A stretch of DNA of 63,995 nt, counting the filler, from Circinaria calcarea (taxonomy: Eukaryota), in the NCBI GenBank assembly GCA_051942165.1. It is 4 parts of 4 records of this genome, joined end to end, with 100 filler letters (N's around TTAATTAATTAA, not from the genome) between each part and the next. Parts side by side here need not be neighbours in the genome. Positions count along the whole stretch, not along the records: positions 1 to 16,673 come from JAVECS010000307.1; 3 more parts are not named here. One strand, given 5' to 3'. The notes beneath the pieces are model-generated. The model was not told where the DNA came from. It saw only the letters and a list, made by a program, of their open reading frames with translations, and did no database searches. Below, one piece after another: positions 1-17,946 of the stretch. A program made the position numbers and the translations under genes. The number at the start of each line of letters is the position of its first letter. Positions within the stretch are counted from its first letter, which is position 1.

Positions 1-294
1 CACAGTCATGATCTGGTATTCCAGGATCCCTTCAAGTTCTAATAACTTCTCCTTGGCTCGCTGCAATGAGCCACTCAGGCTCTGATGGAGAGGAGGTCCG
101 CTTGAGTCGATATCTCTTCTTAGCAATGAATCGATCTCTTGGAGCAAAAGACGAAGGTCTTCGATCTCATTGTTCAAGGCCCGGATTGTATTGGGAGCTC
201 CACGAAGTGAAGCAAGCTTACCTAGGCTTCGACCGACACTGCTTGCAGCTCCAACGACTGCGACAATGCCAGCAGTAACCGACAATGGATCCAT
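1..294 (-). CDS. HeLo-like / fungal STAND N-terminal domain protein, 5' part only (runs off window start)
   Basis: Not in the ORF track. Manual translation from ATG at 294 gives MDPLSVTAGIVAVVGAASSVGRSLGKLASLRGAPNTIRALNNEIEDLRLLLQEIDSLL...LQRAKEKLLELEGILEYQI, with the typical 'MDPLS(I/V)TA..A..' start and 'AP..I.AL.NE..DLR..L' motif. Clear paralog of the 10215-10700 exon. Confidence 0.8.
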   Translation of the reverse strand, partial: MDPLSVTAGIVAVVGAASSVGRSLGKLASLRGAPNTIRALNNEIEDLRLLLQEIDSLLRRDIDSSGPPLHQSLSGSLQRAKEKLLELEGILEYQIMTV

Positions 295-1298
295 AACTCA
301 CATACAGTAGAAGAACGATGAATTGTCAAATGATCATAGAAAGGCATTACACTTGCACTGTGGCTTTGAACATTTCACACCGGGATAAGTCATGGTAGAG
401 AGGAATATAATGATTGGAGATGTCTCCTGAGTCACACTTGTGCTTTGCCTTTATTATTTAGCAGCACCTATCATCTTAACGAGTCCCCCGAGGTTACACA
501 GAAACGACGCAGCTTCCGACTCAGTGTCTGCGGCCCAATTATCGAGTTCATGAAGATGCAGGTGCATTCGGCAATGCTTGCATATGCAGCTGAGACACTG
601 CCAACAAGGCTCAGGTGCTGCAGACAGAATGTTATCGTATCAATAGGGCAAAGTCTCATGTAGCGGGGAAAGGAAAACTGTAGAAGATCCTAGAGCAGAA
701 TGGTTCTCCGATTGGTAGATACTTTAGGTTTAGCAATTTCAGCCTGGACCATACCAGACACTTTCAGGCTGTGATGGTAAGGAAGCAACATTAACCCAGG
801 CACCTGTTTATAGAAAAGCATGTAGCGTCTGCTTGAGCTTGGGCTAGCCACTTTATAAGAGTAATGATAAGGAGTAGGTGGCAAGGAAAATTAGAGTATC
901 TAATCATGGAGAATCATAGAATACAGAAGACTGTAAGGATAGCAGTGAATCAAGGAACAAAGAAAAAGTTCGCAGTGCCTTTGTAGATGTCGTACAAACA
1001 GCATGGCTGAGACCTGATTTGCACGGCTGGAACACGCCTCATGGGCCACTTATCTACACCAAATTACCAGCTGAGTGTAGTAGCTGCATATAAAGCTTCT
1101 TCTTGGTGGGATAAGAATGTTGATCCCCAGCAGTAGGTTCTCGGCCTCGTGCTATCGCTGGTGGCCTTGTGTCATCTATGAAATCATTTATTATCTTGAG
1201 AGCGCTAACTGAGCCACATAGATATGTTTTCTTTCATGCTCTAGAAGTGACTCTTGAGGTGAAGGTGTGTGTGTACCATGAAACCCATATCAGGCTCT

Positions 1299-2021
1299 TC
1301 ACCAAGGAATCTCATCCCCCTCCCTCGAGTAAAACTTCCCCGTGTCCTTCTTTCCAAATCCCTCAATCATCGGCATCATCATCTTGACCGCGTCCTCAGC
1401 ATCAATCGCGCCTTCCTCCCGCATAGTCGGCACCATCCTCGACTCCACCCTGCCCGGATGGACAATCGTAAAGCAAACCTCAGGCACATCAATGGAAAAG
1501 GACTTGACTAGTGCGTTTAGCGCCGCCTTGGATGCACGGTACGCATACTTGGATCCGTCGTGATTGGACGCAATAGAGCCCATCCCTGAGCCCATGATGA
1601 CCACCTTGGCGCCCTGCTTTGGCGCCTTGAGATTCGGGATCAACGCCCGGATCAACAGAAACGAGCCCACAGCGTTGATCTGTAGCGTCTTCATCATCGT
1701 GTCCGAATCCATGACTTCCATTGTCTCGGCGGCGCTAGGATCTTTTTCTTTCTCCGTGATTGCAGGGACGAGACCGCGGATTGCGGCGCTGTGGATGAAG
1801 AGGTCGACGGGTTGTCCATCGAGGGATTTGACGAAACCATCTACGGAGGATTGGGAGGAAGCGTCGATGGTGTGTTCATGAACTTTTGCAGGTACGTCGG
1901 AGATCTTGTCTGGAAACGAAACGTCGAGGGCGTGGAGAGTGTTGCTTTTGTCAGGGGCGAGGAACTTGAGAAACGTATGGCCGATGCCGGAGCCAGCGCC
2001 TGAGATGACAACGGTCGGCAT
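1299..2021 (-). CDS. Short-chain dehydrogenase/reductase (C-factor/CsgA-like), intact
   Basis: 240-aa ORF with ISGAGSGIG Rossmann motif, catalytic YRASK, HPGRV and the C-terminal 'GKFY..EG.EIPW' typical of this SDR subfamily. Confidence 0.9.
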   Translation of the reverse strand: MPTVVISGAGSGIGHTFLKFLAPDKSNTLHALDVSFPDKISDVPAKVHEHTIDASSQSSVDGFVKSLDGQPVDLFIHSAAIRGLVPAITEKEKDPSAAETMEVMDSDTMMKTLQINAVGSFLLIRALIPNLKAPKQGAKVVIMGSGMGSIASNHDGSKYAYRASKAALNALVKSFSIDVPEVCFTIVHPGRVESRMVPTMREEGAIDAEDAVKMMMPMIEGFGKKDTGKFYSREGDEIPW

Positions 2022-2194
2022 TCTGATGGTGATTACCTATATGTTCGTGATGATAATAAACGATTTCGATGATACAGGATTATCCTGCGAAATACACAAT
2101 CGAGAATGTACTATTTCAACCCTACGACACTTTACATAACGGTCACTGCAGAACGGTGATGTGACGTAACAAGTGACTTCATTTGATGCAGGCC

Positions 2195-3817
2195 TTAGGT
2201 TTCTACATCCGGATGTATCTTCTCCAAGTCCGCCTTTCCTGCTCCTTCAATTGCCTTCAACAACCCGTCCACTGTCTCCCTTCTCGTGTCCCTGTTAACA
2301 ACTACTCTAAAGAACTTGCCCTTCTCTCCAGGTGCATAATCAACCATGAAACCCTCTCGGATCAGACGCTCAGCGATATCCTCCGTTGCTTTCGAGTTGC
2401 CTTCGGCTTCTGGGCAGATCTCTCCGTGAGGAGCGTAGTGGAAACACACTTGTAGACAGGGTGGAGGATTCGAAGAGACAAGTCTGAGATGTATGCGGCC
2501 GTGTCGAAAGCTCGGTTGACCTGACTAGCATATCCTGTTTTGCCGTAATAGATCCAGCCAAGGGCAAGTTTCAATGAATCACCTCGTCGGCCACATTGTA
2601 AAGTTAGGTCTGCAAGATCATAGACTTCTGTGTTTTCGTTAATCCCGGCCTCGCTATGAAACAAGTACCCAGCTGGAAGAGTATTCGTCTTGTGGAATTT
2701 ACGCATGTCAGCACCTAAAAGGAATGAACAAGTAATAGGCACACCCATCATTTTATGAGGGTTGATTGCAATAGAATCTGCTTTCTCTGAACCTGCCATT
2801 TTGTGGGAATGCTTGGCGGAGAATATAGCCGGACCGCCCCAGGAGGCATCGATATGAAACCAAAGGTTGTGCGTTCTACAGATCTTGGAAATATCGTGGG
2901 AGGGATCGTAAGATCCAAGGACAGTCGTCCCGGCCGTTGCATTAACGTAAAAAGGGGTATAACCTTCTGCTTCAGCCTTCTTGATTTGCACTTTGAGCTC
3001 CGATGCTTTCATTCTTCCTTCATCGTCAATGGGGACAGACCAGACAGAAGCACTACCAAAGCCAAGCATTTGCGCTGCCTTTTCGATACTGTAGTGGCCA
3101 TAAGCGCTTGTAAACAATACCAATTTCCGACCTGAAGCGAAATTACCGTTCTCCTTGGTGTCTGGAAACAACATATTGCGCGCAATGACAATTGAGGTTG
3201 TATTCGACGCCGAACCACCTTGGGCAGAGATACCTCCAGCGTGAGGTCCAGATAGACCAAATAGATTTGCCAAGGTTTTCGAGGTTGTCTTCTCGATAAT
3301 CGTTAAGGCAGGTGAAATCTGGTAGATATGTAGATTGGTATTGAGGACAGCTAAGATGAGCTCAGATGCAATATTAGAAGCATCTGTTGAAGTATATAGT
3401 TTGTTTAGGAAACCCTGATCCCACGTATTCACCGAGTACTGTAAGATTTTTGCACGAATTTGAGGAACCCATCTTGCCCTTCACTAATATCTGGCAATTG
3501 TAGGTCCAGTAATTGTCCCAACTTCTGCGGTTTATGATGCTCTACCAGAGCTGTCCGGGGCCCATCTTCTTTGACCGTCAGTTCATGCCCTGTCGACTTT
3601 GTTCCAGCATCTTCGTCCGCTGCGCGTATGTATGGTATAACAAGGTTTTGTACAGCATTGAGTAACTATATCAATTAGTCGTATCCTCGCATACATTGAT
3701 TTGTATCCCCATTATAGCTGAAGTCGGAGTTTGACCCACAGTAGAAACCTCATCCGCACGGCTCAATATATGTCTTTTGCTTGGCCTATCTGGCAGCTGT
3801 TCCGCATCTCCAGACAT
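2195..3817 (-). pseudogene. PLP-dependent group II decarboxylase (glutamate/cysteine-sulfinate decarboxylase-like), two frameshifts
   Basis: ATG 3817, intron 3739-3666, motifs ATAGTTVLGSYD, HIDASWGG, INPHKMM, LTLQCGRR. The frame breaks in an A5 run at ~3447-3451, where KILQYSVNTWDQ needs one more A. It breaks again at ~2480, where AYISDL jumps frame to LVSSNPPPCLQVCF. Confidence 0.8.
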
Positions 3818-4030
3818 CGTTAAACAGTGAGCAACGCAGCAGGACTAGCGATAAAGGAAAATAAACTCGAGTATTATAGCGACAAGAAATAATATAGAAT
3901 TTGGAAAGAAGCAACCATTTCTTCGGTCGAGATTATATCATCATTGTTCGCCTTCGGTGCATTAGCTTCCGCCGCTAAAACATAATCTTGCCGGGACGGG
4001 TCTTGAAACTCTAATATTTGTTCCTGAAGC

Positions 4031-5485
4031 TTATTTTCGATTTGCTCCTTTTGCTGCATACTTCTCCCTGGCGAGTTCAATTGCGCTTTTTGCTGTGGCT
4101 TCGTGATTGACTACGGCCTTGATGACTGAGCCGTTCACGCCATTTATAGTACCTTTAGCCTGAGAGATCCATTCGAGTCTACGCCTCTTGTAAAGATCCA
4201 TTATTCAATTCCTCCACACTGCTCGCCCAGAGAAGGATTTCTTCAAAACGGTTTTATGCTCTAGCAGCTCTTGCGCGAATCGCTCTCGTATAAAGAAAAG
4301 ACTCTCGGTAGATATCCAAAATATATCGACAACATATAATGCTATTGCATCAAGCGCGAGCTCTGAGAGATGCTCTTGAAATCGCTGCACAGTTTGGCGA
4401 ACAAAAAGCTTTGTCTGGGAAGAACAAGTAAAAGCTTTTTGCAACACGTGCGTCGCAGTTCGACTTCTGGCCATTAACAAAAGATTTTCCGTTGTACTGG
4501 ATACAATGCTTTCTGTAACTATCTCACGCAACTGTCCTGGAGCATCTAGCATAGCGGGCGGCATAGCCTGAGCTAGGAGTAACGCATAAGTTTTTCCGCT
4601 ATCTTGTACCTCTAATTGCTTCTTGCGCTCTGGAGCCATAGTCTCCACGTCGTACGTATCAAGCTTCAGCATTTTCAACAGAAGGTTAGTACGCTGGCCG
4701 CCGTACCCTCGAAGGATTGCATCTGCAACTAGATCTGTCTGAATTTGCCGAACTGCACAACGTTCAATCATGGTTTTTATGATAGACGACTGGGAGCGCT
4801 CAATTAGTGTTGGGATTTGGGGGCTTATCTGCTTAACTGCATGTTGAAGATCCTCTTGGCTTAAACGCTCTAACATTTTTGCCAGTACAAATCTAGCTGT
4901 CTCGTTCTTGACTAGACTCCCCATCTTTTCCCTGAATAGGTCCTTGTATATTGACTTGAAGACTTTACCAGGAGCAAATTCTATGATCGTCTCCAATAAA
5001 CGAGAACCAACAGGATCATAGAGTAGACTAGTGACAAACGATGCACTTGTGGTGCCCTGAACGAGCGGGTCATCCGGGAGAAGCTTTCGAAACAGAGAAG
5101 TCGCGTCTTTCGTCTTCTGTTTGCCGGACTTTGTGAACTGCAGCTCAAGGAGGAGTTGAAGGACAGGGTTTCCAAGAGGATGTGTAGCTAGTGCCCGAAG
5201 GTATGTAGTATCTAACGCTGCAACTGTACCTGATATCATCTCATCCAGCGCGATGCTAAAAGACTCTGGGACGGTGCGAGTGGCTATGGTATCTGGTTGT
5301 GATCCTAAGGTTCCACCCGTGATATCGATCTTTTCCTTCTTTTTACTTTGCAAAAGCGACATCGTGGCTGAGCCGGCCAACGGCCGTCCAGACAATACGA
5401 TGAGCAGAACTCGTAAGGTATGGGAGGCAAAATGGTCGGTTATAAGATACCCAAGGTTACCTTTGAGCTCATTAATCGTATATAG
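4031..5485 (-). pseudogene. NOP9: Nucleolar protein 9 (Pumilio/Puf-repeat) copy, 5'-truncated with internal stop
   Basis: Motifs LYTINELKGNLGYLITDHFASHTLRVLLIVLSGRP, GNPVLQLLLEL, YDPVGSRLLETII. TGA at 4205-4207 interrupts VWRN*IMDLYKRRRLEW, where W is expected, and the frame continues to KSAIELAREKYAAK. Similarity stops abruptly at ~5485, so the N-terminal part is missing. Confidence 0.85.
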
Positions 5486-5915
5486 GAGGTGGGAAAGAAA
5501 GGAGGAGCATTACAGGGAGGGCACTATTGTCTTCTAGGAGCATGCGTGGAATAGCCACAGCGAATAGGATATGTATGCTACTAAGTATGCTATAAATACT
5601 ACAGCACAGGCACAAAAGTAATAACCAAAAAGTATGAATTTCGTATATGGAATCCGTGTAGAAGAAAGACGTGAGAATCGCTGAGATATGGAGCGAGAAG
5701 CGCGCCCAATTAGCGTGGTTTCCCCGCCTCCTTCTTACGCAGCCAATCGCACGATATTCGTCTAATCCCGGTTCGAAAAGCCGGGTTACAGGAGGGGTAG
5801 AAGTAATCACACGTGATCAGCACTAACCATATATTGGCCAGCGCTTAACTTTCTCGTATAAATCCGTCTTGTTCAGTTCATTAAGCTTATTCTATTATTT
5901 CGTCAGCTAAAAGTT

Positions 5916-6425
5916 ATGGCTTCTCTAATAAACCCCATTGCTCGTTCTAAATTTCAGCCAAAACGAGTAATTCTAAGACTTCGAGTCAACGAGTTTGAGG
6001 GGGAGGGTCGAAGCTGGGAACAGCATGTTGACGCTATAAAAGCCCATCTTACATGGGCAGGACGCTCCACGAGCGAATATGAAGGCGAATACGAGACAAG
6101 AAAACATTTTGCTCACGTCGAGCCATTTCAGGCGCCCGAGCTGAAACAGACAATCTTTCACGTTATCCTCGACATCGAACAACACTTGCTTAAGGAACCG
6201 AACTTTGACACTTTGCCCCACGAAATCTACCGTGTGCGCCGGGATAAAGAGGGAAAGTTGTAAGGTGTGAGCCTCCTCCTTCTTGAGTAGGTTAGTTAAC
6301 TTTCTGATAGAGAGGTCTATGCATTCCAGAACCCCCTTGAAGCAGAAAACGTGATTTATAAAACACGAATGCTCACGGATATTATATACCCTTGGGCTGG
6401 CCAAAGTACCAGATCGCGAGAGTAA
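5916..6425 (+). CDS. Hypothetical ~152-aa protein, two exons
   Basis: ATG 5916; intron 6260-6310 (GTAAGG...TTAAC...TAG); exon 2 continues in frame as EVYAFQNPLEAENVIYKTRMLTDIIYPWAGQSTRSRE* to 6425. Confidence 0.6.
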
Positions 6426-7448
6426 ATGGGCGCAAAGAGAGCTATATAAATCAGGTATAGTATTAGATATTTTCTGGTGCTGAGTTGTCTCTAAGTGCAA
6501 CTGACGCAGGCCAATTCGTAGAACTTCTAATAAAACCTCTTGTTCTGGCCACAGCCAAAATCGCTTACTGCCTGGCTAGCTCCTGCTACGTAAAGATCTG
6601 CACAATGATATACCCGCTCTTTACCTCTATTCACCCTCCCTACCCAAGACCTAATTCCAGCCGCAGGAGCCACCACCAGCTGCCGAGCCGTGTAGTTAAT
6701 CAATGGATGGTAGTCTACAAACACATAAATTTTTAACTTATCTTATTAGATAATTTAAACCAAGATCTTTTTATTATTCAGCTACTCTTCACCTTCTTGT
6801 AACTCTGGGCGTACTGGTGCCAAAGAATATCTTAATTCCTCCCATGTACTGCTGGTCCTCCTTTCCCATCCTGCCTCGGTTATAATTTTATTGAGATCCG
6901 GTTCAGTATCACCCATATATATTACCACTGAGAAGCCGTTTGTGGTTATTATACGATCACAGAACTATAGCGGACATAGATTCCTATAAACGAACTTCAA
7001 CAGGTCATGACTCACAACTATCAGCCGGAGGTTCGGTTAGTTCCGTGATGCTCCGTGATGCATCTATTGATACGTATATCGGCACCCCAGTTCTGATGAT
7101 TATCAGGATCATTGATGAGCTGAAGACACTGAGGCGGACAGAAATGAGTATTTCAGCACCCCCAAAGGCGACGAGCAGGTTGACAGTAACGCCCAGCCAT
7201 AATGCCGTTAATGCACCAATATACGATAGCACACGCTGGATCTGACGAAGTGAAGGAAAGTAGGTATCCATGTGATATCGGATCGGAATAATATATTTGC
7301 GGAGCTAAGATGAAAGTAGTCTGAACCGCCGAGCCCGCGGTGAGAACCGGCTGCGGCATAACTTAGGGATATCTGGTAGAATTCCCGCTTTTTAGGCGAT
7401 TACGATTGGTAATTTTGAAATGGTCATTCGAGCGAAATAGTAAACAGC

Positions 7449-7560
7449 TGAAAGCTCATGGGAGCGCAAACGAAATGAGGAGGAGATATCACCCGAACTG
7501 GGTTCAAATCCCAATAGCGCTACTTTTGGGTGGTCCGGTGGTTCCCCCCTCCTGTTTTCT
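7449..7560 (+). repeat. tRNA-like / SINE-like dispersed element, copy 1
   Basis: Aligns by eye with the reverse complement of 24590-24692. Contains the Pol III B-box/T-arm TGGG-TTCAAAT-CCCA followed by TAGCGCTA, and ends in CCTGTTTTCT. Confidence 0.7.
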
Positions 7561-8034
7561 ACAGCTATTCGGTATGCATGTGCTTTGGTGGCAGATAGCT
7601 GAAATGGGGCGAAATCTTTAGAGGCTCGAAAATTCTGCCGTATTAGGCCCACCGATGAAAAGGTAATAATCGAAGTAGCTAAAGGTAGCAATACGATTTA
7701 CATCAGACTGCCAAATGTTCAATGAGAATCCGTATGATTTAATGGGTGCGCGGGAGTAAGTACCACCTTTCTATGGGTGCATCGGGCGTAGCATATAGAA
7801 TAAGGGGGTGTCTGAGAGTAGAGAATGATATCATATGGGTCCATTGTAAGAAATCGAGAGGAATCCAGGTCTAAACTAAACGCCAAGATAACTAGAACTC
7901 CCAATAAACACACACTACCAACCCATACCCATGTCTCCCCGTTCCCGTCCCCATCTCATTTCCCATAACCACCCCTGATCCCTTTCCAATTTGCCCCTTA
8001 ATGCCTCCTCGCAACACTCCACCCTCAAAGCACC

Positions 8035-10700
8035 TCAGACCTCCTTAAACCCTCCGGGCCCAAGTATATCCCACACCATGCCCAGCCGCCTCATCACCCC
8101 AAAGTTCAGGAAGAGGTACGCAAGTCCCGCAAAGCACAGGCCGAGAACCCAATAAGCCCAGAAGACCCTCGGTCCCCATCCAATCCATGGGTGTAGAATC
8201 GCGGTGGAAATACGTAGAGACCAGCTGGAGCCGCTTCTCTGGTAGATTGATCCTGCCCATAGCTGCCGGACCCACTTTGCTAGATACCGGAGATATGCTC
8301 GATCGCCTGATGTCGATTGTGAGTTGACGGGATTACTGCCGTCTGTACTGGAAGCCTCCTGGCTCGCATTTCGTTCTCGGATACCAGCAAGAAGGTTCTG
8401 AAATTGTGCAATGAACCCATGTGGTTTTACCTCCCGTTCCCGAGCTATCTGGATCGCTGTCTTCCCTTTGTTATTAGTGGCATCGGGATCAATGCTCTTG
8501 AGTTCTGCAGCTTGTAAAATACTGAGTGTCCTTGAACCGCCAGAACGGGCCGCCTGGTGCAGGATTGTGTTTCCATAAACGTTACTCTTGAGATAAGTAG
8601 CCCCGCGATGTAGAAGTAACTCGGTCGTATTATCTGCGTGATTGCGTATAAAGTCAGTTAATGGGGTATCGCGTTCGCAATCCAAAACGTTAAGATCAGC
8701 CCCGTAATCCAGTAATGCTTCTGCTGAAATGGTAGAATCTTGGAACGCGGCATGGCTAAGCGGAGTACAACCCCAAATAGTACGCTTATTCACATCAACC
8801 CCAGCTTCTACCAGGCACTCAATCATCTCCCTACCATTTTGATTCTCCGCCGCATAATGTAATGCATTAAAATTTCGATCGTTAACATGATGAGGATCTG
8901 CGCCCGCTTTCAGAAGCAGTTTTGTACATGTAGGGTCTGATCTTCGTGCTGCATATAGTAAAGGCGACATATAGAGCCGATTTACCAGATTTGGATCAGC
9001 ATTGGCTTTGAGAAGGAGATCAACGGCTATACTATCGCCTCTTCGAGCTGCCCACATAAGAGCAGTGTTACCGTCTGAATCGATGCGGTCGATGTCGGAT
9101 CCGCAGCTGGTCAATTCTTCTTCCAGCCTACGCGATGTTATATTAAGAACAGTTTTATGGAGCGTAGGGAATTGACGTTCTTCTAGACTATTGTCCTTAT
9201 CAGGAAAGAGGTTTCGTAGAGTTTCTAGACCGGCTTGATCTCCGGACGCTGCGAAGATGATGTTCCAGATGTAATCGAAAGCAGATCTATAATATTAGCT
9301 TTAAATAGTTGGGATTGAGATTTATTAACTAACCCTCCACCACCGAAGATTTCGAGGTAAGGATCTGCTCCAGCCTTCAAAAGAAATTCACAAGCTTTAA
9401 TTTTACGGGTTGTTACAGCTGTCTGGAATAAATATATGATTAGACAAAGATTGCATCGATGGATGGGATTTAGGAAGTTAAATCTACTTGGAAGCTTCGG
9501 TCTTATGTGATAGGTAAATTTGAAATATTACATATAATAAGAGCCGGTCCCCCATCACTCATAAAGTCATTTGGCGAAGCCAAACCTTTGCTAAATAGAC
9601 GTTTCAAGCCGTCCACATCATCATCTCTGGCTAAGCGGAAGATTTCTGACTCAGGTGAGACAATTCTTCTAACGGTCAAGGATACACTGATTTTATCCAG
9701 AGAGCCGCTCGCGAGTGTTATTATAAAAGCCTTTGTCAAAATTCAGGAAGGGAAAAGATAATGAACATATGTTCTAAAACTCGATTGAGACAGACAATTG
9801 GTATCTGTACAGTTTTGGAGCCCCATTATGGGGTATCCACAGTAGCCGACGAATAGAGTTCCTATGGCTTTGTGTAGTAATGCTGGTGATTGAAAGGTCC
9901 GGACTTTATGACAGGCGCACGTGCAATATGAAGTGCAGGGCGATTGTTGACAAGTATAGGCTCGGATGCGAATTATCGAGCTCGGAGCGCTGTCTCCAAC
10001 ATAGGTTGGGTGATGAGCTTGCGTAGTGGCTGAAGTTTGAAGGCTGAGTAGACCTTGTAAAATGGACTGGCTGCTTGAAACACTGGCAAGGAGCTTGGAA
10101 TGCTCATCAAGCTGCTGGGAAGTACGATCGCTAGAAAGGTGGTGGCTTGATTGTAACTGGCCAGAGATGACGTGAATTTGATCAATCGTAAAACCAATGC
10201 GAGATTGATGGGAGCTATAGAATTATTAGCCGGCTTTTCCCTGATTCATCGTGTATGTGCACATACGAGTTTACCACTACCATGTGCGTGGTTATATTAA
10301 GCCTAATATCTCGCAAGCTCTGTTGAAATCTCTCGATTGAACTCTTTGCTCTTGTCCATTCCCGTTTGGATACCTTGATTTCATCGGAGATAGATTCTGG
10401 TTTAACAAGCCGATATTGAATTAGTTCGTCAAGTTGAAGGAGTTTATCTTTTGCTCTACCGACTAAGATAGATATGTGCTGTAGCTCCTCTTGAAGTATC
10501 TGTTGTCTCTGTGTATCTTGAGTGATGTAGTGCTGTAGATCATTTAGGATAAGTCGAAGATCGGAGACTTCGTTGATTAGAGCTAGAAGCTCATCAGGTG
10601 CGTTGCGAATATTTTTTATTTTTGCCAGAGTTTTGGTGATGCCTCCAGCAGCTCCAACGACTGCGACGATGCTGGCGGTAATAGAGAGAGGATCGGCCAT
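8035..10700 (-). pseudogene. HeLo-like N-terminal domain + Cys-rich linker + ankyrin repeats + C-terminal hydrophobic tail; premature stop
   Basis: Exon 1 MADPLSITASIVAVVG...; exon 2 with CTSYCTCACH...FPS*ILTK (TGA at 9743-9745 where W is expected); a probable splice donor reads ATATGT (~9535) instead of GTATGT; multiple ankyrin repeats (GNTALMWAA, SPLLYAA, NALHYAA, GCTPLSHAA, GNTILHQAA). Confidence 0.8.
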
Positions 10701-12536
10701 TGTGATGATGGAGATATATCACTTGACGGATTTTAAGCCTTTGTGTATATGAAATGACCAATCGACAGAAATGCTACAATTCAACAGAATATGAGCTTGT
10801 AGCATTCGCCTTCAGAGATTACCGTGTTGGAAAATGAGGAGGGAAAGAAGAAGATCACGGCGATGGATCTCCCTGAGGTAATATGGCACAGCAGCTGCAT
10901 GCTTAAGGCATTGACTCAAGGTAGACGCCTTAGCATCTGTTCGGAGTCATAAATCGTGGAGAGCAACAGCTACGAGCCAAAGAACTTAGAAAGATCTTAG
11001 AAACGCGAGAGATTGGGGCAACAACATTGAAGCCTTGCGTACTAGGCACGGCCTTCCTTGAACCTACCAATCGAAAGATCGGGTAACACAGCATGAAAAA
11101 TGCATGATATTGCCGCTCATCTGCTTTCTGATAGTTCTTACCCGCTGGCACTTCGGCTCATTTACCAATACAGGGGAATGATATGAGTTATGCCCCGCAT
11201 AGACAAAGAAAAGCAAGTTCCTTGGATACTTAATACTTCGCCTGCAATTGATGAAGTATACTTAGGTACTGATAGATCCTTAAGTATTAAAGACTCATGA
11301 GGAGCGATGAAGGAGCTCACAAATTACTCCTACCTTCCCACCTCCCCACCTCCAACGATCCACCCAAACACTGGCGCGCCTTCATCGAAACCCCACTCCT
11401 GGTACGGCACCCTGCCCCTATATATCCAGGGCGTACTCCGTAAGGCGCAGAAAACGGTACTCCGTGCAGACGCATATGCACAAACACCAGCTCACGTCCG
11501 ATCGGCCTCAGGCTTCCAATCACCCACCCTAGCAAGAACCTATCAACTCCCAATGAGTATCCTGATCTTGAACGCCGTTTTGGCCATATGTACCTAGCTG
11601 GAACAATCGCCACCTCTTTCTTATCCATTCGGAGGGTGCGGAAAGCGCGAGGGTTTACTGTTAGGAGCTGCAGCGTAGCGGATACTTTCGAGGAGGGATA
11701 AAGGAGGTGGAGTGAAGGGTGGTTAGCTGGTTGGACGGCGAGGATACCGTAGGTGTGTGCCTGAGGGCGAATTCTTTCCTCTCGGCTTCCTATCACCTTT
11801 GACGGGCGGGGCTTAGATGGGCATTGCTGCCTTTCGCTGCCTTGCTGGCTTGCAGCTGCAGGAGTGCTTTCATCCAATCAGCAGTAGAGGCCTTGCCTTG
11901 AGGTGCCACAACAACAGCACTGCCATCGTTCTACAGCGATTTAGCCGATTGGCCCGCGCTTCGATAGCTGAGAATGGGGATAAAAGGTATAGCATGATAG
12001 CACGCTTGTTGTAACTCGTAAGGAATTAGAGTGCCTACTGAAATGGAGAGTGTTAACGCCTTCCGAGATACGCTAGGCTGTAGGTTACAATTTTTACAGT
12101 ACGATTCAAGGGCGGGTGGAAAAGTCGTTGCCAATGGAAGAAAACCAGTGTATAAAGACTGCCCCGTTCCTACTACCTATAGATTGAGCTTTTAAAATGG
12201 GACTTCTATACCTTCAGTATCTTACAACATTCAACGAGCTATGATTCCTGTGTGAGGGGGTCCTCCATTACCATATTGTGATTTCGGCAACGACTTCTAC
12301 TCACCCGCTTGAGGAAACTGTTGGTTTTGGGGACTCGGAGCAAGTATGAGTGCCTAAATTGCAACTGCCTTTGGGAAGCAGTGCTCTCTTCTGGATCTGG
12401 GCACCATTGCGTTCACTGTGATTATTCCTGTTCAAATTGGAATAACTATGTTAAGTAAGATCCGGTTTACTTGATCGATGTGGTAATTAATATTCACCCA
12501 TTACTTATTCACTAGAACCATGCTTATCGAGACCCT

Positions 12537-13376
12537 TTAGGCCATGTTCATGTTCTTCAATCCATGAACGACCTCATCAGCCGACTCATATCTCCCGGCC
12601 CAGCACTTCTGCACAACCTCGCCACATAGCTCCTCATCCAGAGCAGGAAACCGACCTGCCTTGAACCGGCTTACAATCTCTAGCGTGTCTTGCCAGGGAT
12701 CTAGTTCTGGAAAAGGTGGGTGGTCTTTCATCATGAAGTAGATTGCTGAACCCAAAGCGAATATATCCGTCTTTTGATTCGCGTCGTTGGGATCTGACCG
12801 TGGCATCGATGACTTAATATTCTCACCCGACCCACCATCAAGGTAAACCGTGCCATCGGGATGTAAGAGTTTCCCTTGAAAGTCGCATAATTTGATGTCC
12901 AGATCCTTGTCGAGGAGTAGATTGCCGACGCCGACATCGCAATGAAGGACACCTTTCGTGTGAATATAAGCAACAGCCTCTGCAGTCTGCATTGCCCATT
13001 TCAGCCTTTCCTGTACCAAGGGCCGTGGATTGGCATTGTAGAGATAATCAGCTATTGATCCATTGGGCATATACTCGAGCAAGAGACCGTCCTCATGTTT
13101 ACCCTTAAAACGGATGATTCGATGATGCTGTCCTAAGATTCCGAGAATTTGCTCTTCAACGTCAAGACCAATTTGTTGTTCCTGCCTCAAGATTCTATAA
13201 ATTTTTTCATTTTCCAAATGAAGGCCCAAAGGCTCTTCTGAAGGTAGACTAGGGTATTTAAGAACGGTATTCTCGTCGACAAGACCAATAAAGTGGCTGC
13301 CGCCAGAAGCAATGACTCTCTCGACTCCGCGTGGATACCAGGAGTATATTACAATATCTGGTTTTGGAATGTCCAT
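12537..13376 (-). CDS. Small single-domain protein kinase-like protein (non-RD)
   Basis: 279-aa ORF with Gly-loop ASGGSHFIG, VLKY, LLLEYMPNGS, HCDVGVGN, DFQG, KTDIFALGS. Confidence 0.85.
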   Translation of the reverse strand: MDIPKPDIVIYSWYPRGVERVIASGGSHFIGLVDENTVLKYPSLPSEEPLGLHLENEKIYRILRQEQQIGLDVEEQILGILGQHHRIIRFKGKHEDGLLLEYMPNGSIADYLYNANPRPLVQERLKWAMQTAEAVAYIHTKGVLHCDVGVGNLLLDKDLDIKLCDFQGKLLHPDGTVYLDGGSGENIKSSMPRSDPNDANQKTDIFALGSAIYFMMKDHPPFPELDPWQDTLEIVSRFKAGRFPALDEELCGEVVQKCWAGRYESADEVVHGLKNMNMA

Positions 13377-14380
13377 GATAGGCGTTGAAGGGGATGTATG
13401 GAATTGTGTCGCACGTCCTCGTCACTCTCTCGTCGCTCGTCTTCAAAAATTGCGGTTGCGATTGCGATTGTGTGAAACGGGCTTAGGGAGGGGAACTGCG
13501 ATTGAAGGTGGAGCAGCGTATTTCTCCAGAGAAGTAATGTTCGAGGATATATAAAGTAGTAGGTGTAGGGTACCAGCATGCCGGCGTTGATATTCACACG
13601 AAGGTAACGTTGAGGCAGCAGCGAGTAATGTGGTGAGCATTTTAGGATTAGTCTAGCGCATTGGTACACTTTTCACCAAACTTTTAAGAGCTTCTGAAGA
13701 GCTAAGAGGAGCCACCCGGGTCGAGTCAACACCTTCAGCTGCTGCGTAGCACCGCCGACGAACCTTCTAGCGTTACACTCGATACACAGCAGTCTACTAT
13801 CCCTACGATTGTATCAACTACCTTATCTATTAGTATGTTCCCTCATGGGTCATGTCGAAGTCGTTCTCTTCAGCGACAAGGAGCACTTGGAAGCATTTCC
13901 ACCTGGTACTATCCGTGGTTACTAGCAGCGAGGCAGTCAGTTATTCCCAAACGGCTGTAGGTTGGTCCTGGCTCCTTTCGGACCATCGTGCCACCTAGGG
14001 GCCTTCGAGGCCAAGGGGAGAGGCTTGGGTAGAACTCGGGGATCGGACAATGAACGTGGGTGGGACAGAAGCGTTAGAAAGTGGTGGATTACGGTTTCGG
14101 GCGGGTGAGAGGACGAAAAGAGGGGAGTTGGCTGTATGTAAGAATGGCAATGAGTATCGTTGTAAGGCTAACTTCTACTTTAGATTTTAAATCCCTAAGA
14201 AACACCTCTGGTCCCCAAAACTTTTATGTCAGCGTTCCATCGTCAACTGTGGGACGACATTAACAGAGGACCAAGAGTTTCCATAAGTCATCGTGACTAT
14301 AAATGTTCGTGTCAGCGGAAGTTGTGGTCAGAGGCTTGAGAAGACGATATTCAGGCATACTAACTAATTGAAGATCGGAC

Positions 14381-14563
14381 TTAACATTTTGGACAAATTC
14401 CGCCATGGACAGTAGACTTTCCAAATGAAGAGTTGTCTTTGATTCCCTTGCAGGCAGGAGTGCCAACATCTTTACAGGACCTAATGGTATTTACAACCAA
14501 CGAATGCTTCGGTTGTTTGGTACAGTTTCTGTACTCCCTCGTGATAATGTTTCTGTCACACAT
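14381..14563 (-). CDS. Small Cys-rich putative metal-binding protein (60 aa)
   Basis: ATG-started ORF with pattern MC-x11-C-x5-H-x9-C-x7-C-x18-CPKC*; no signal peptide. Confidence 0.55.
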   Translation of the reverse strand: MCDRNIITREYRNCTKQPKHSLVVNTIRSCKDVGTPACKGIKDNSSFGKSTVHGGICPKC

Positions 14564-15039
14564 GTCGAAGAACTTGAAATCTTCTGCATGTTAACTCTCG
14601 TAGGTCAAACACGTTTAGGTTACCGAACCTGCGTGGGTAATGTGTTATAGTTGTCACAACCAGGAAACGGTATGGTGCTATCGAGTGCCGAGAGGGGATT
14701 CGAAGGAAAGTTGTACTGTTGAGAGCTGAGGAAGAACAGTTAGAAACAGTGGCGGCTCCAGGCAGCTTTGGTTGAGCGGAGTCACCGAATGCAACGATCA
14801 GACAGACGACTTGTGAGTCATCTTGACTGGCGCCTAGAGCATTTACAGGGTTAGGAATAATCTATCAGAAGCAAGGGTAGCTTGGAGGGTGTGTACCCTC
14901 CGACTGTTTCCGACAGGACGCGGGTATTTATATCCACTAATCTCCACGTACTCAACAAGCTGGGTCGAATTTTCCATTTGTTCTTTTAGCCAGCTGTCAT
15001 GTTCGAGGTTTTCCCTAACATACACAGTATACAGACCAA

Positions 15040-15255
15040 TTTCTCCAAGGGTAGCTTGAACGAGGTGGTAGTTGTGTGGAAGCAAAATCCACAGCTTTTA
15101 TTTCACTGACGCGTGAAATGATAATTGACTGAAACAGGAGTGTTGGCTTTGGGACTATAGTAGATCCATCGCAGCATAGTTGCAATGATCGTTGCGACAC
15201 ATGCCGAGACTAGTAGAACCAATAGATTGGGTGAGAAGTGCTTCTCAAAGACCAT
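15040..15255 (-). pseudogene. RSAD2: Viperin/RSAD2 radical-SAM gene fragment (N-terminal anchor + Fe-S motif only)
   Basis: Reading through the TGA at 15103-15105 gives [71 protein letters not shown], matching the viperin signature [20 protein letters not shown]. No downstream GGEPF motif was found. Confidence 0.85.
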
Positions 15256-15635
15256 CCCGGCGTTGAAGAGTAAGTCTTGAGCAGCGATCATGGTGAAGTT
15301 TAGGAGATCCACGGGGAGACCTGACCCCTCTTTATTATCGATAACAATTCCTGCAAAGCAACGGGAAGAGGGGTAACTTGTGCGACCTCAAGTGGTTGTT
15401 GTAATTACCGATCCAGCCTTCTCTTTCTGAATCTTGAGAAATAGCCGTATAAATAATTCGACCCATCAGCCAGAATGGTGTCCGGGAACATCATCTGCGT
15501 TTTGGGTGAGTGAATCCCGTTCCTTTATACGGCGGAGGTAGTAGCATAAGTGCTCTCAATAGGATTGACTCTTACTTCTATTCTCAGAGCTACGTACATC
15601 GTCGCCTTCCACCCCTCTCGTATAATTTATCCCGC

Positions 15636-15880
15636 TCACTTCAACCATGTCCGCTCATGCATGATGATGCCGCGAACCAGAGCAGCATGGTTTAGAAAAT
15701 CGGTCTTTAACTCGAAAACCACATTTGGACACTTGGGATGAGTACAGACTGAATGATCGTCAAATTCAGGGTGTGTTCGATGAAAGTGCCGTTTTAAAGA
15801 GTCTTTGCTACCGTAGGAGAGTTCTGTACGGCTGGTACAGACGAGGCATTGGAAGGGTTTGCAATCCACCCGAATGGTTG
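15636..15880 (-). mobile_element. Relic of DUF3435 (Starship captain-type tyrosine recombinase) C-terminal Zn-finger region
   Basis: CKPFQCLVC...YGSKDSLKRHFHRTH...CTHPKC...FLNHAALVRGI resembles the C-terminal C2H2 region of DUF3435 proteins. No upstream recombinase domain is visible on this contig. Confidence 0.6.
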
Positions 15881-16384
15881 TACAACGTGGAGGCCCGAAG
15901 CTTTGTCATAGTATTTGGTAGATAGTGTGTTCCTTTTCTGCTGAATAGGTTCACTTAACGTGCCAGTGATTTATCGAAGAGACACATCTATTTGTTCATA
16001 AATGATTGTAATCTCACTATCCTCGCAGTACATATCTCTGATATTCACCACATGATCACTGACAAAAGGTGGCATATAATGTCCATTATTTTGTTCGGTT
16101 CTTTTGACCCATTTAATGGCAACTATGATTCAGGCTCTGGTGTTGTCACATCCGATGATAGCTGGTCCGGCTTGATCCAAAGCCATCCACTCGTGATATA
16201 CGGTCTTAGGCTTATTCCCAATCCGTCGCTTGACGCTTTTAAGGATACGTTCTCCAGGATCAAAGACATCGACTGGTGCTGATCTTGTCAAGGAGGGTTC
16301 AAATTCAATATGGCTTTCGAGTTGACTAATAAGTTGCTGTACACTTGCCGTACCGACAGTTCCGGTATCCCAGGATATTCCACT

Positions 16385-16530
16385 TTAATCAGCATAGTTG
16401 ACCGCTTCCGCCAAATTATAGCTCATGTTGAATTTCTGGTGATAGAAGTTGGGCAAGGTGACGACGGCCTCGTTGGGCAGCTGAGAAATTATTTTAAAGA
16501 AGATCCCCCATGCTCCAAGGGTCGAGCACA
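16385..16530 (-). pseudogene. JmjC-domain fragment
   Basis: Manual translation STLGAWGIFFKIISQLPNEAVVTLPNFYHQKFNMSYNLAEAVNYAD* matches the JmjC C-terminal motif QxPGExVxTxPxxYHxGFNxGxNxAEAVN; conserved Gly codons appear changed by G>A. Confidence 0.7.
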
Positions 16531-16673
16531 GTATATAAGTGGCGAAGTGACGTTCTAGAACTTATGTCGTCTCAAAGTTGTTGAAAGACTTCAATGACAA
16601 GTAACAGATCTTGCAATAACATCAAGTGTACTTACGTCTTCAATCCTAGATGCCAATGGGTTTCCAGGTAAAG

Positions 16674-17634: not shown

Positions 17635-17946
17635 CTCTTTCTGTTGTTCGTGCTCGCCTTGATCGATGGGGTGTTCGGGAGCAACATCCATGGCTAGCAG
17701 GATATCCAGGCCCTCCGATTTGGGCCCGGCGGCTCGAGGATTGGCATCGATCTGTCCATACAGAAGTTGGCGATCTTTCGAGGGGTCGAGAGGACATTCA
17801 AATCTGTTCGCGCTCACCGGGCCTCACTCGAAAAGCTGCCGTCCCAGCTAAGTCGTTTGGGGAACGCGGCGGGTTTCAAGGATCGCCTGACGCCCTATGC
17901 TTTGCGGCGCGGGATGGTCATTACGGCTACCACCGATTCTACCTAG
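17635..17946 (+). mobile_element. DUF3435 captain relic B (recombinase core)
   Basis: A frame not reported in the ORF track reads LFLLFVLALIDGVFGSNIHG*QDIQALRF...KLAIFRGVERT...QLSRLGNAAGFKDRLTPYALRRGM, carrying the hallmark L.RLG..AGF...LTPY.LRRG motif; internal TAG at 17695-17697. Confidence 0.8.

Follow-up and report, generated by a model that had tools for sequence, protein, structure and literature searches.

Does a contig that holds a trace of a Starship captain beside scraps of immune-type genes represent the cargo of such a giant transposon, and if so, cargo of what kind? The question is raised by contig C307 (G000:C307; JAVECS010000307.1) of the lichen-forming fungus Circinaria calcarea (Pertusariales, Megasporaceae; assembly of 31.5 Mb in 5512 contigs, GCA_051942165.1), the whole of which makes up positions 1-16673 of the window, the stretch of 63,995 nucleotides that was analysed. 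An earlier note made from the sequence alone had read this contig as the decaying cargo of a Starship, headed by its captain and perhaps serving as a mobile defence island. We find that C307 is a mosaic in which duplicated chromosome blocks and scraps of genes stand beside a kinase cassette shared between species, and that it is likely an internal part of a derelict region of Starship origin, no longer self-mobile. Decaying Starship cargo is thus the part of the proposal that we retain, with the captain reduced to a relic; derelict Starship-derived cargo bearing a recently transferred kinase cassette is, with some reserve, our preferred reading. We prefer it because the captain tail is genuine and the JmjC family found next to it is tied to contigs with captain, DUF3723 or NLR genes, and because another scrap of a captain adjoins a PigL_N-ankyrin gene on C1923 and the captain junction recurs on C1355 as a duplicate altered by repeat-induced point mutation (RIP).

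The captain is a remnant that cannot move the region

The DUF3435 C-terminus that had been suspected on the minus strand is a true captain tail. Positions 15636-15890 (-), a Cys/His tail, are 80% identical over 91 columns (E 2e-40) to residues 555-644 of P0001, a 644-aa DUF3435 protein of Trapelia coarctata with PF11917, from which the C307 copy differs by a 7-aa deletion. Four of the five database matches of the tail carry PF11917, which sets it apart from ordinary C2H2 fingers; a match to those alone was among the outcomes that the earlier note had named as fatal to its proposal. The Pfam DUF3435 domain covers residues 83-494 of P0001, and the C307 fragment falls outside it; with only residues 555-644 of 644 present, the remnant is far under the starfish filter (25% of 812 aa), and this 255-bp scrap is unable to mobilise anything.

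The proposal that this captain heads the element is not supported. The 780 bp upstream of it contain a JmjC relic and a broken open reading frame (ORF) and no captain sequence; therefore the body of the captain was deleted or displaced and was not cut off by the end of the contig. The broken ORF (15935-16381, minus strand) has two stops and is without Pfam, PDB or own-genome match; a reading of it as a kinase N-lobe was not supported, as it has no similarity to the kinase alignment. The cargo-type JmjC relic and this ORF lie directly upstream of the captain tail on C307, while on C363 a JmjC ORF lies downstream of a captain. The captain end of C307 is likely nested or rearranged, and the captain-first geometry of Starships (PMC10104507; here and below, statements on cited papers refer to the available parts of their text) cannot be claimed for it.

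The JmjC relic (16314-16552, minus strand; PF02373, E 3e-8) is KDM4-like and forms part of a repeat that runs on to the end of the contig, with copies on C962, C1355, C4473 and C519. It is 80% identical at the amino-acid level to the 856-aa JmjC ORF on C363, which stands directly downstream of a near-complete captain gene. Across the genome, 17 DUF3723 matches fall on 6 contigs, half of which (C745, C920 and C185) carry JmjC genes akin to the relic. A further relative is found on C92, a contig with a SesB-NB-ARC-TPR gene of NLR type and one of the two possible right neighbours of C307.

Captain debris also occurs elsewhere. On C1923 (L114:97-3671), a captain fragment with 47% identity to residues 205-293 of P0001 adjoins a PigL_N-ankyrin gene. 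A weak DUF3435 relic at window positions 17641-17913, on contig C308, is below the cut-off (E 8.5e-5) and has no link to C307.

A cassette with a kinase shared across three orders

What is likely the most recent component of C307 is a 2.7-kb cassette that includes an intact protein kinase of 279 aa (12537-13376, minus strand; PF00069, with HCDVGVGN and DFQG motifs). The catalytic Asp is preceded by a residue other than Arg, and the kinase is thus of the non-RD (HCD) type that had been proposed. It is identical at 275 of 279 positions to a protein of Lambiella insularis (Baeomycetales), encoded on an 883-kb contig, and at 274 of 279 to one from an Umbilicaria vellea metagenome-assembled genome (MAG; Umbilicariales). 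NOP9 proteins of these lineages, with Lasallia standing in for the Umbilicariaceae, are only 55-63% identical. In the kinase tree, the three copies form a cluster of near-zero branch length with Xylographa. Atlas searches returned generic clusters for the kinase and a weak match (0.91) to small ascomycete proteins, and none of the papers listed in a literature search named Lambiella.

Independent contigs extend this sharing beyond the coding sequence. The comparison covered four of ten runs (X1, X2, X3 and X6), with 6 of 30 bins covered in X2, and stretches without cover in these runs were not counted as absence. Record 6 of run X2, 20.6 kb from another organism, matches 12449-15159 at 98% with 48 differences and no gaps; the match takes in the kinase, the adjacent small Cys gene, spacer DNA and the viperin scraps described below, and gives way to unlike sequence at both ends. 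Record 5 of run X1 crosses the junction at 12308 at ~99%, and that join is therefore not a chimera. With the kinase at 98-99% across three orders and the cassette in other flanks in X2, cargo here is variable and carries a signal of horizontal transfer in part of the region, and gene order is not fixed, in line with the earlier note. The kinase and small-Cys cassette has likely been exchanged recently among lichen-forming fungi by horizontal transfer, as judged from these identities.

The partner of the kinase is an intact 60-aa Cys/His-rich protein (14381-14563, minus strand). A kinase search of metagenome contigs gave six loci, four of them with real matches, and in two of these four (L101 and L102) homologues with 52-53% identity adjoin the same kinase family, as in record 7 of X2, which makes the two genes a conserved module. 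We suggest that they may form a regulator-kinase pair.

Duplicated chromosome blocks

The left part of C307 corresponds to a native locus of the same genome. C777 runs collinear with window positions 1-801 and 1135-4749 (77-79% identity), and C1983 does so with 3937-5487 (79%). C777, which carries the single-copy TIP20 gene, shares an 893-bp overlap of 95% identity with C1983, and the two contigs are likely two alleles of one locus with the order TIP20-ANK-SDR-GAD-NOP9, native copies of NOP9, GAD, SDR and ANK having 79-85% identity. The housekeeping block that had looked captured is a broken second copy of this locus, and the second HeLo-like gene, taken before as defence cargo, belongs to the same native order.

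The genes of this block differ in their state of preservation. HeLo-like (PigL_N)-ankyrin gene 2 begins at 1-294 (minus strand; PF17111, E 1.5e-7), continues onto C1916 and is probably intact across the two contigs; it is 90.5% identical in nucleotides to its C777 counterpart, with a dN/dS of 0.07. The short-chain dehydrogenase gene (SDR; 1299-2021, minus strand; 240 aa, PF00106) is also intact, and its product is 95% identical to proteins of three other assemblies and 86% identical to its own C777 copy (dN/dS 0.14, by codon counts). The glutamate-decarboxylase-like gene (GAD; 2195-3816, minus strand; PF00282) has two frameshifts, near 3450 and at 2440-2490, relative to the continuous C777 ORF, and a dN/dS of 0.05-0.06 by codon counts. 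NOP9 (3937-5487, minus strand; PF22493) is a pseudogene, truncated at the 5' end and interrupted by a premature TGA at 4205-4207; the intact NOP9 on C1983 is 79% identical to it in nucleotides, with a dN/dS of 0.14 at a dS of 0.78. The C1983 product agrees at 528 of 529 positions with a protein recorded for a Circinaria calcarea MAG. In a tree of 29 rows, the window NOP9 pairs with P0007 of another assembly (support 100/99), apart from the copies of its own genome and on a longer branch (0.14 vs 0.043). Run X6 has 1-5487 in the same order at ~90%.

By these codon comparisons, the window copies diverged under purifying selection and are now partly broken. The pattern fits capture in a related lineage followed by decay after arrival, with old duplication and differential loss as the alternative.

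A second block spans 7653-12308 and recurs at 75-82% identity on C1819, C2606 and C2966. It contains HeLo-like (PigL_N)-ankyrin gene 1 (8035-10700, minus strand; introns predicted; PF17111, E 1.1e-10, and Ank_2), which has a nonsense TGA at 9743-9745 where C1819 encodes Trp. The HeLo-like-ankyrin copies on C1819 and C2606 are 85% identical to each other with a dS of 0.47, as highly divergent alleles or paralogues. A MITE-like element with 27-nt inverted ends (12106-12312), found by an inverted-repeat search and with 72-77% copies on about nine contigs, marks the transition from this block of 80% copies to the kinase cassette. On the left neighbour of C307, C1916:382-2508 (L067) is an 81% duplicate of the C2846 locus and is without TIP20, so the foreign-looking segment reaches beyond the window.

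From the relics, the duplicates, their selection history and the 98-99% sharing, all of which are observed, we infer a Starship as vector, a donor lineage and an order of events. In a related lineage of Megasporaceae type, where the genes concerned were functional, a captain-driven element would have taken up ANK2-SDR-GAD-NOP9 and also ANK1 and the DNA upstream of it. After the element had reached the present genome, the redundant NOP9 and GAD copies would have decayed there. Deletions and nested insertions would next have taken away the recombinase body of the captain and broken up the genes for viperin, JmjC and DUF7924. Much later, the kinase and small-Cys-protein cassette would have been swapped among lichen-forming fungi. 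A broad RIP signature was rejected as the route of decay, as only 2 of 65 windows of C307 (GC 46%) pass the RIP thresholds; the contig has decayed through deletions and point lesions.

Viperin and HeLo-like genes

Viperin is present on C307, as had been noted, in two separated pieces. An N-terminal relic (15013-15291, minus strand; TIGR04278, E 2.8e-13) lies 345 bp past the captain stop and has TGA in place of the first Cys of the radical-SAM CxxxCxxC motif; a second fragment (13848-13904, minus strand; residues ~216-234) is 84% identical in amino acids and 89% in nucleotides to the viperin on C936. Between the two lie the small Cys gene and a DUF7924-family fragment (14912-15016, minus strand; 69% over 35 aa to an ORF of L103, PF25545). 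Neither an intact CxxxCxxC nor a full radical-SAM domain is found on C307, and searches of cluster representatives with the relic gave generic matches only. The viperin/captain junction at 15043-15676 has the RIP-mutated duplicate on C1355, in which 63 of 67 differences are C>T or G>A.

Two intact viperins are encoded elsewhere: one, on C295, is surrounded by housekeeping-type genes, and the other is on C936. The C936 cluster (L081:12-8064) runs Argonaute, AAA_28 P-loop protein, intact viperin, adenylate-kinase family and CYTH; a linkage of viperin with NMP kinase has been published (10.1101/2023.09.13.557418). The fungal viperin of that work is likewise a radical-SAM protein with a hydrophobic N-tail, of which the window copy is only a relic, and its NMP-kinase neighbour corresponds to C936, whereas the neighbour on C307 is a protein kinase. 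We found no link between fungal viperin and Starships in the literature, subscription papers and the Tangerine supplement lying outside the search.

Both PF17111 domains on C307 are over the cut-off, their role in cell death being predicted; PMC9815663 presents the family as HeLo-like and related to MLKL. At least 49 PF17111 matches occur in the 31.5 Mb of the genome, and two within 16.7 kb is above its average. The two genes on C307 consist of PigL_N and ankyrin repeats only, unlike a fungal NLR, and a Pfam scan of the 28 ORFs of C307 found no NACHT or NB-ARC nucleotide-binding domain.

Alternative origins of C307

Several results weigh against derelict Starship cargo. C307 is without a catalytic captain, termini, DUF3723 or NLR: the Pfam scan of its 28 ORFs found no DUF3723, FRE, PLP or NLR, a genome-wide profile search found no DUF3723 on it, and a repeat search found no terminal repeats within its 16.7 kb. 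The PF11917 profile, a check suggested by the earlier note, matched 24 times elsewhere in the genome and not on C307, where the captain tail is recognised by similarity. Many of these 24 matches have stops, and as captain scraps are common genome-wide, the adjacency on C307 may be incidental. A search of metagenome contigs with P0001 gave 497 pattern matches and no relatives, leaving captain-viperin or captain-kinase linkage elsewhere unsupported, and tblastx of C307 against the four kinase loci had no viperin or captain among the matches listed. The joins at 5487-5960 and 15676-15950 are bridged by no independent contig among the runs compared and so rest on the present assembly, and both the Umbilicaria and the host records are MAGs.

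The first alternative is a generic accessory compartment, in which the ~80% blocks arose by introgression or old segmental duplication, the kinase came with another element, and the captain tail is debris. A captain of 255 bp without termini, in a genome with many such scraps, is what it would expect, and since C1916 carries a further 81% copy, of a C2846 locus, all the blocks might derive from a single stretch of a relative's chromosome, shortened by deletion. It is set back by the JmjC relic, which connects the right-hand side of C307 with hallmark genes of Starships, and by the 98% identity across orders, which exceeds introgression, reported hybrids falling within genera (10.1101/2023.11.22.568313). 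We consider this account unlikely, if deserving of attention.

We think it improbable that C307 comes from a second, co-binned fungus or is in part a misassembly, the "duplicates" then being orthologues of another species. The host record being a MAG, and the window SDR and NOP9 being nearer to other assemblies than to their own-genome copies, would suit such an origin. Cpn60/TCP1 matches occur on 11 contigs against what we take to be an expected 10, with room for a stray extra. However, RPA2, TIP20, 7.1 kb of C295 and MCM2-7 (six loci) are single-copy, which argues against a general second genome, and a wholesale mixture of two genomes was rejected on these grounds. The window NOP9 is dead, hence not the only copy of another genome, and no fourth NOP9 was found in the genome. 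C307 also joins its surroundings exactly, through a 129-bp end overlap with C1916 on the left and exact end overlaps with C92 or C2724 on the right, via a repeat that C519 also enters.

Least probable by a small step is a selected, captain-headed and now partly inactivated defence island of viperin, HeLo-like effectors and a non-RD kinase, for although the local density of MLKL-related PF17111 genes and the duplicated viperin/captain junction speak weakly for it, viperin is scrambled and ANK1 dead in contrast to the intact SDR and kinase, HeLo-like gene 2 is part of the gene order of the native housekeeping locus, no NLR domain is present, intact viperins sit in non-mobile contexts, the pieces differ in age (98%, 90% and 80%) and the kinase family has no assigned function, so that C307 gives no evidence for such an island.

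Comparison with known Starships

Derelict Starship-derived cargo is not new in kind: Starships and their derelicts are already known, lichens included. In the derelict Starships of Gluck-Thaler et al. (10.1101/2021.12.13.472469), cargo likewise outlasts the captain, captain remains are nested and the region is an accessory mosaic; their "degraded" class needs at least three DUF3723, FRE, PLP or NLR matches, of which C307 has none, but a captain tail survives on it. The Tangerine and other lichen Starships (PMC13486527) share a Lecanoromycete host, ankyrin cargo, RIP on copies, transfer among lichen-associated fungi and single surviving "fossil" genes. Tangerine differs in that it has a captain gene and clearly delimited ends, that an empty site exists for it, and that DUF3723, PLP and NLR are among its genes. 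Cargo similarities there include 73-76% and >95%, and a kinase shared across orders at 98-99% is not described in the available text. By analogy, then, C307 would resemble a derelict Starship region, formal membership failing on the intact captain.

The kinase cassette exceeds the yardstick used for the Starship-borne ssf clusters (10.1101/2023.11.22.568313), which asks for >96% identity in nucleotides across >100 bp where the genomic background is much lower. The same cargo occurs there on unrelated captains; its function is known, and for C307 the vector is inferred. The value of C307 lies in a very recent (98-99%) candidate for gene transfer between lichen-forming fungi of different orders, in captured housekeeping DNA from a relative seen decaying after arrival, and in a testable lead on histone demethylases carried by Starships.

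JmjC genes near Starship hallmark genes

KDM4-like JmjC genes are found on C363 (L065:3532-6099), C745 (L116:6058-8646), C920 (L117:5344-7662), C185 and C92, either about 1-6 kb away from a gene for a captain or a DUF3723 protein or on a contig that carries an NLR. The HxED motif is retained in the C363 and C920 ORFs. These genes presumably have KDM4-type demethylase activity, and an anti-silencing role is our assumption from the family. It is possible from this placement that JmjC is an unrecognised auxiliary gene of Starships with such a role. In the literature, we found no JmjC, Jumonji or demethylase link to Starships, the Jumonji and demethylase matches being unrelated and the search having the same bounds as for viperin. 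More tentatively, and with some doubt, rock-dwelling lichen mycobionts of three orders might exchange a Starship-borne cassette whose kinase and Cys/His protein act together, with JmjC as a fifth auxiliary gene; if so, KDM4-like demethylases would strip silencing marks from the Starship.

Other features of the contig

In agreement with the earlier note, nearly all genes lie on the minus strand, and the small Cys ORF, the kinase, the two PF17111 genes with their ankyrins, NOP9, GAD and SDR were all confirmed, the kinase, the SDR and the 60-aa Cys protein being intact on C307. The one plus-strand ORF (5916-6263) encodes 115 aa, possibly a first exon, without a Pfam match, and a 29.6-kb contig in run X3 has 87% identity to 5961-6262. 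Five window ORFs were without an exact match in the protein collection. A dispersed repeat at the NOP9 breakpoint (5496-5790) has 73-75% copies on C4304, C1237 and C626. Short dispersed repeats also occur at window positions 7445-7560, with about nine copies, and on C777 (L059:1652-1823), with at least 40.

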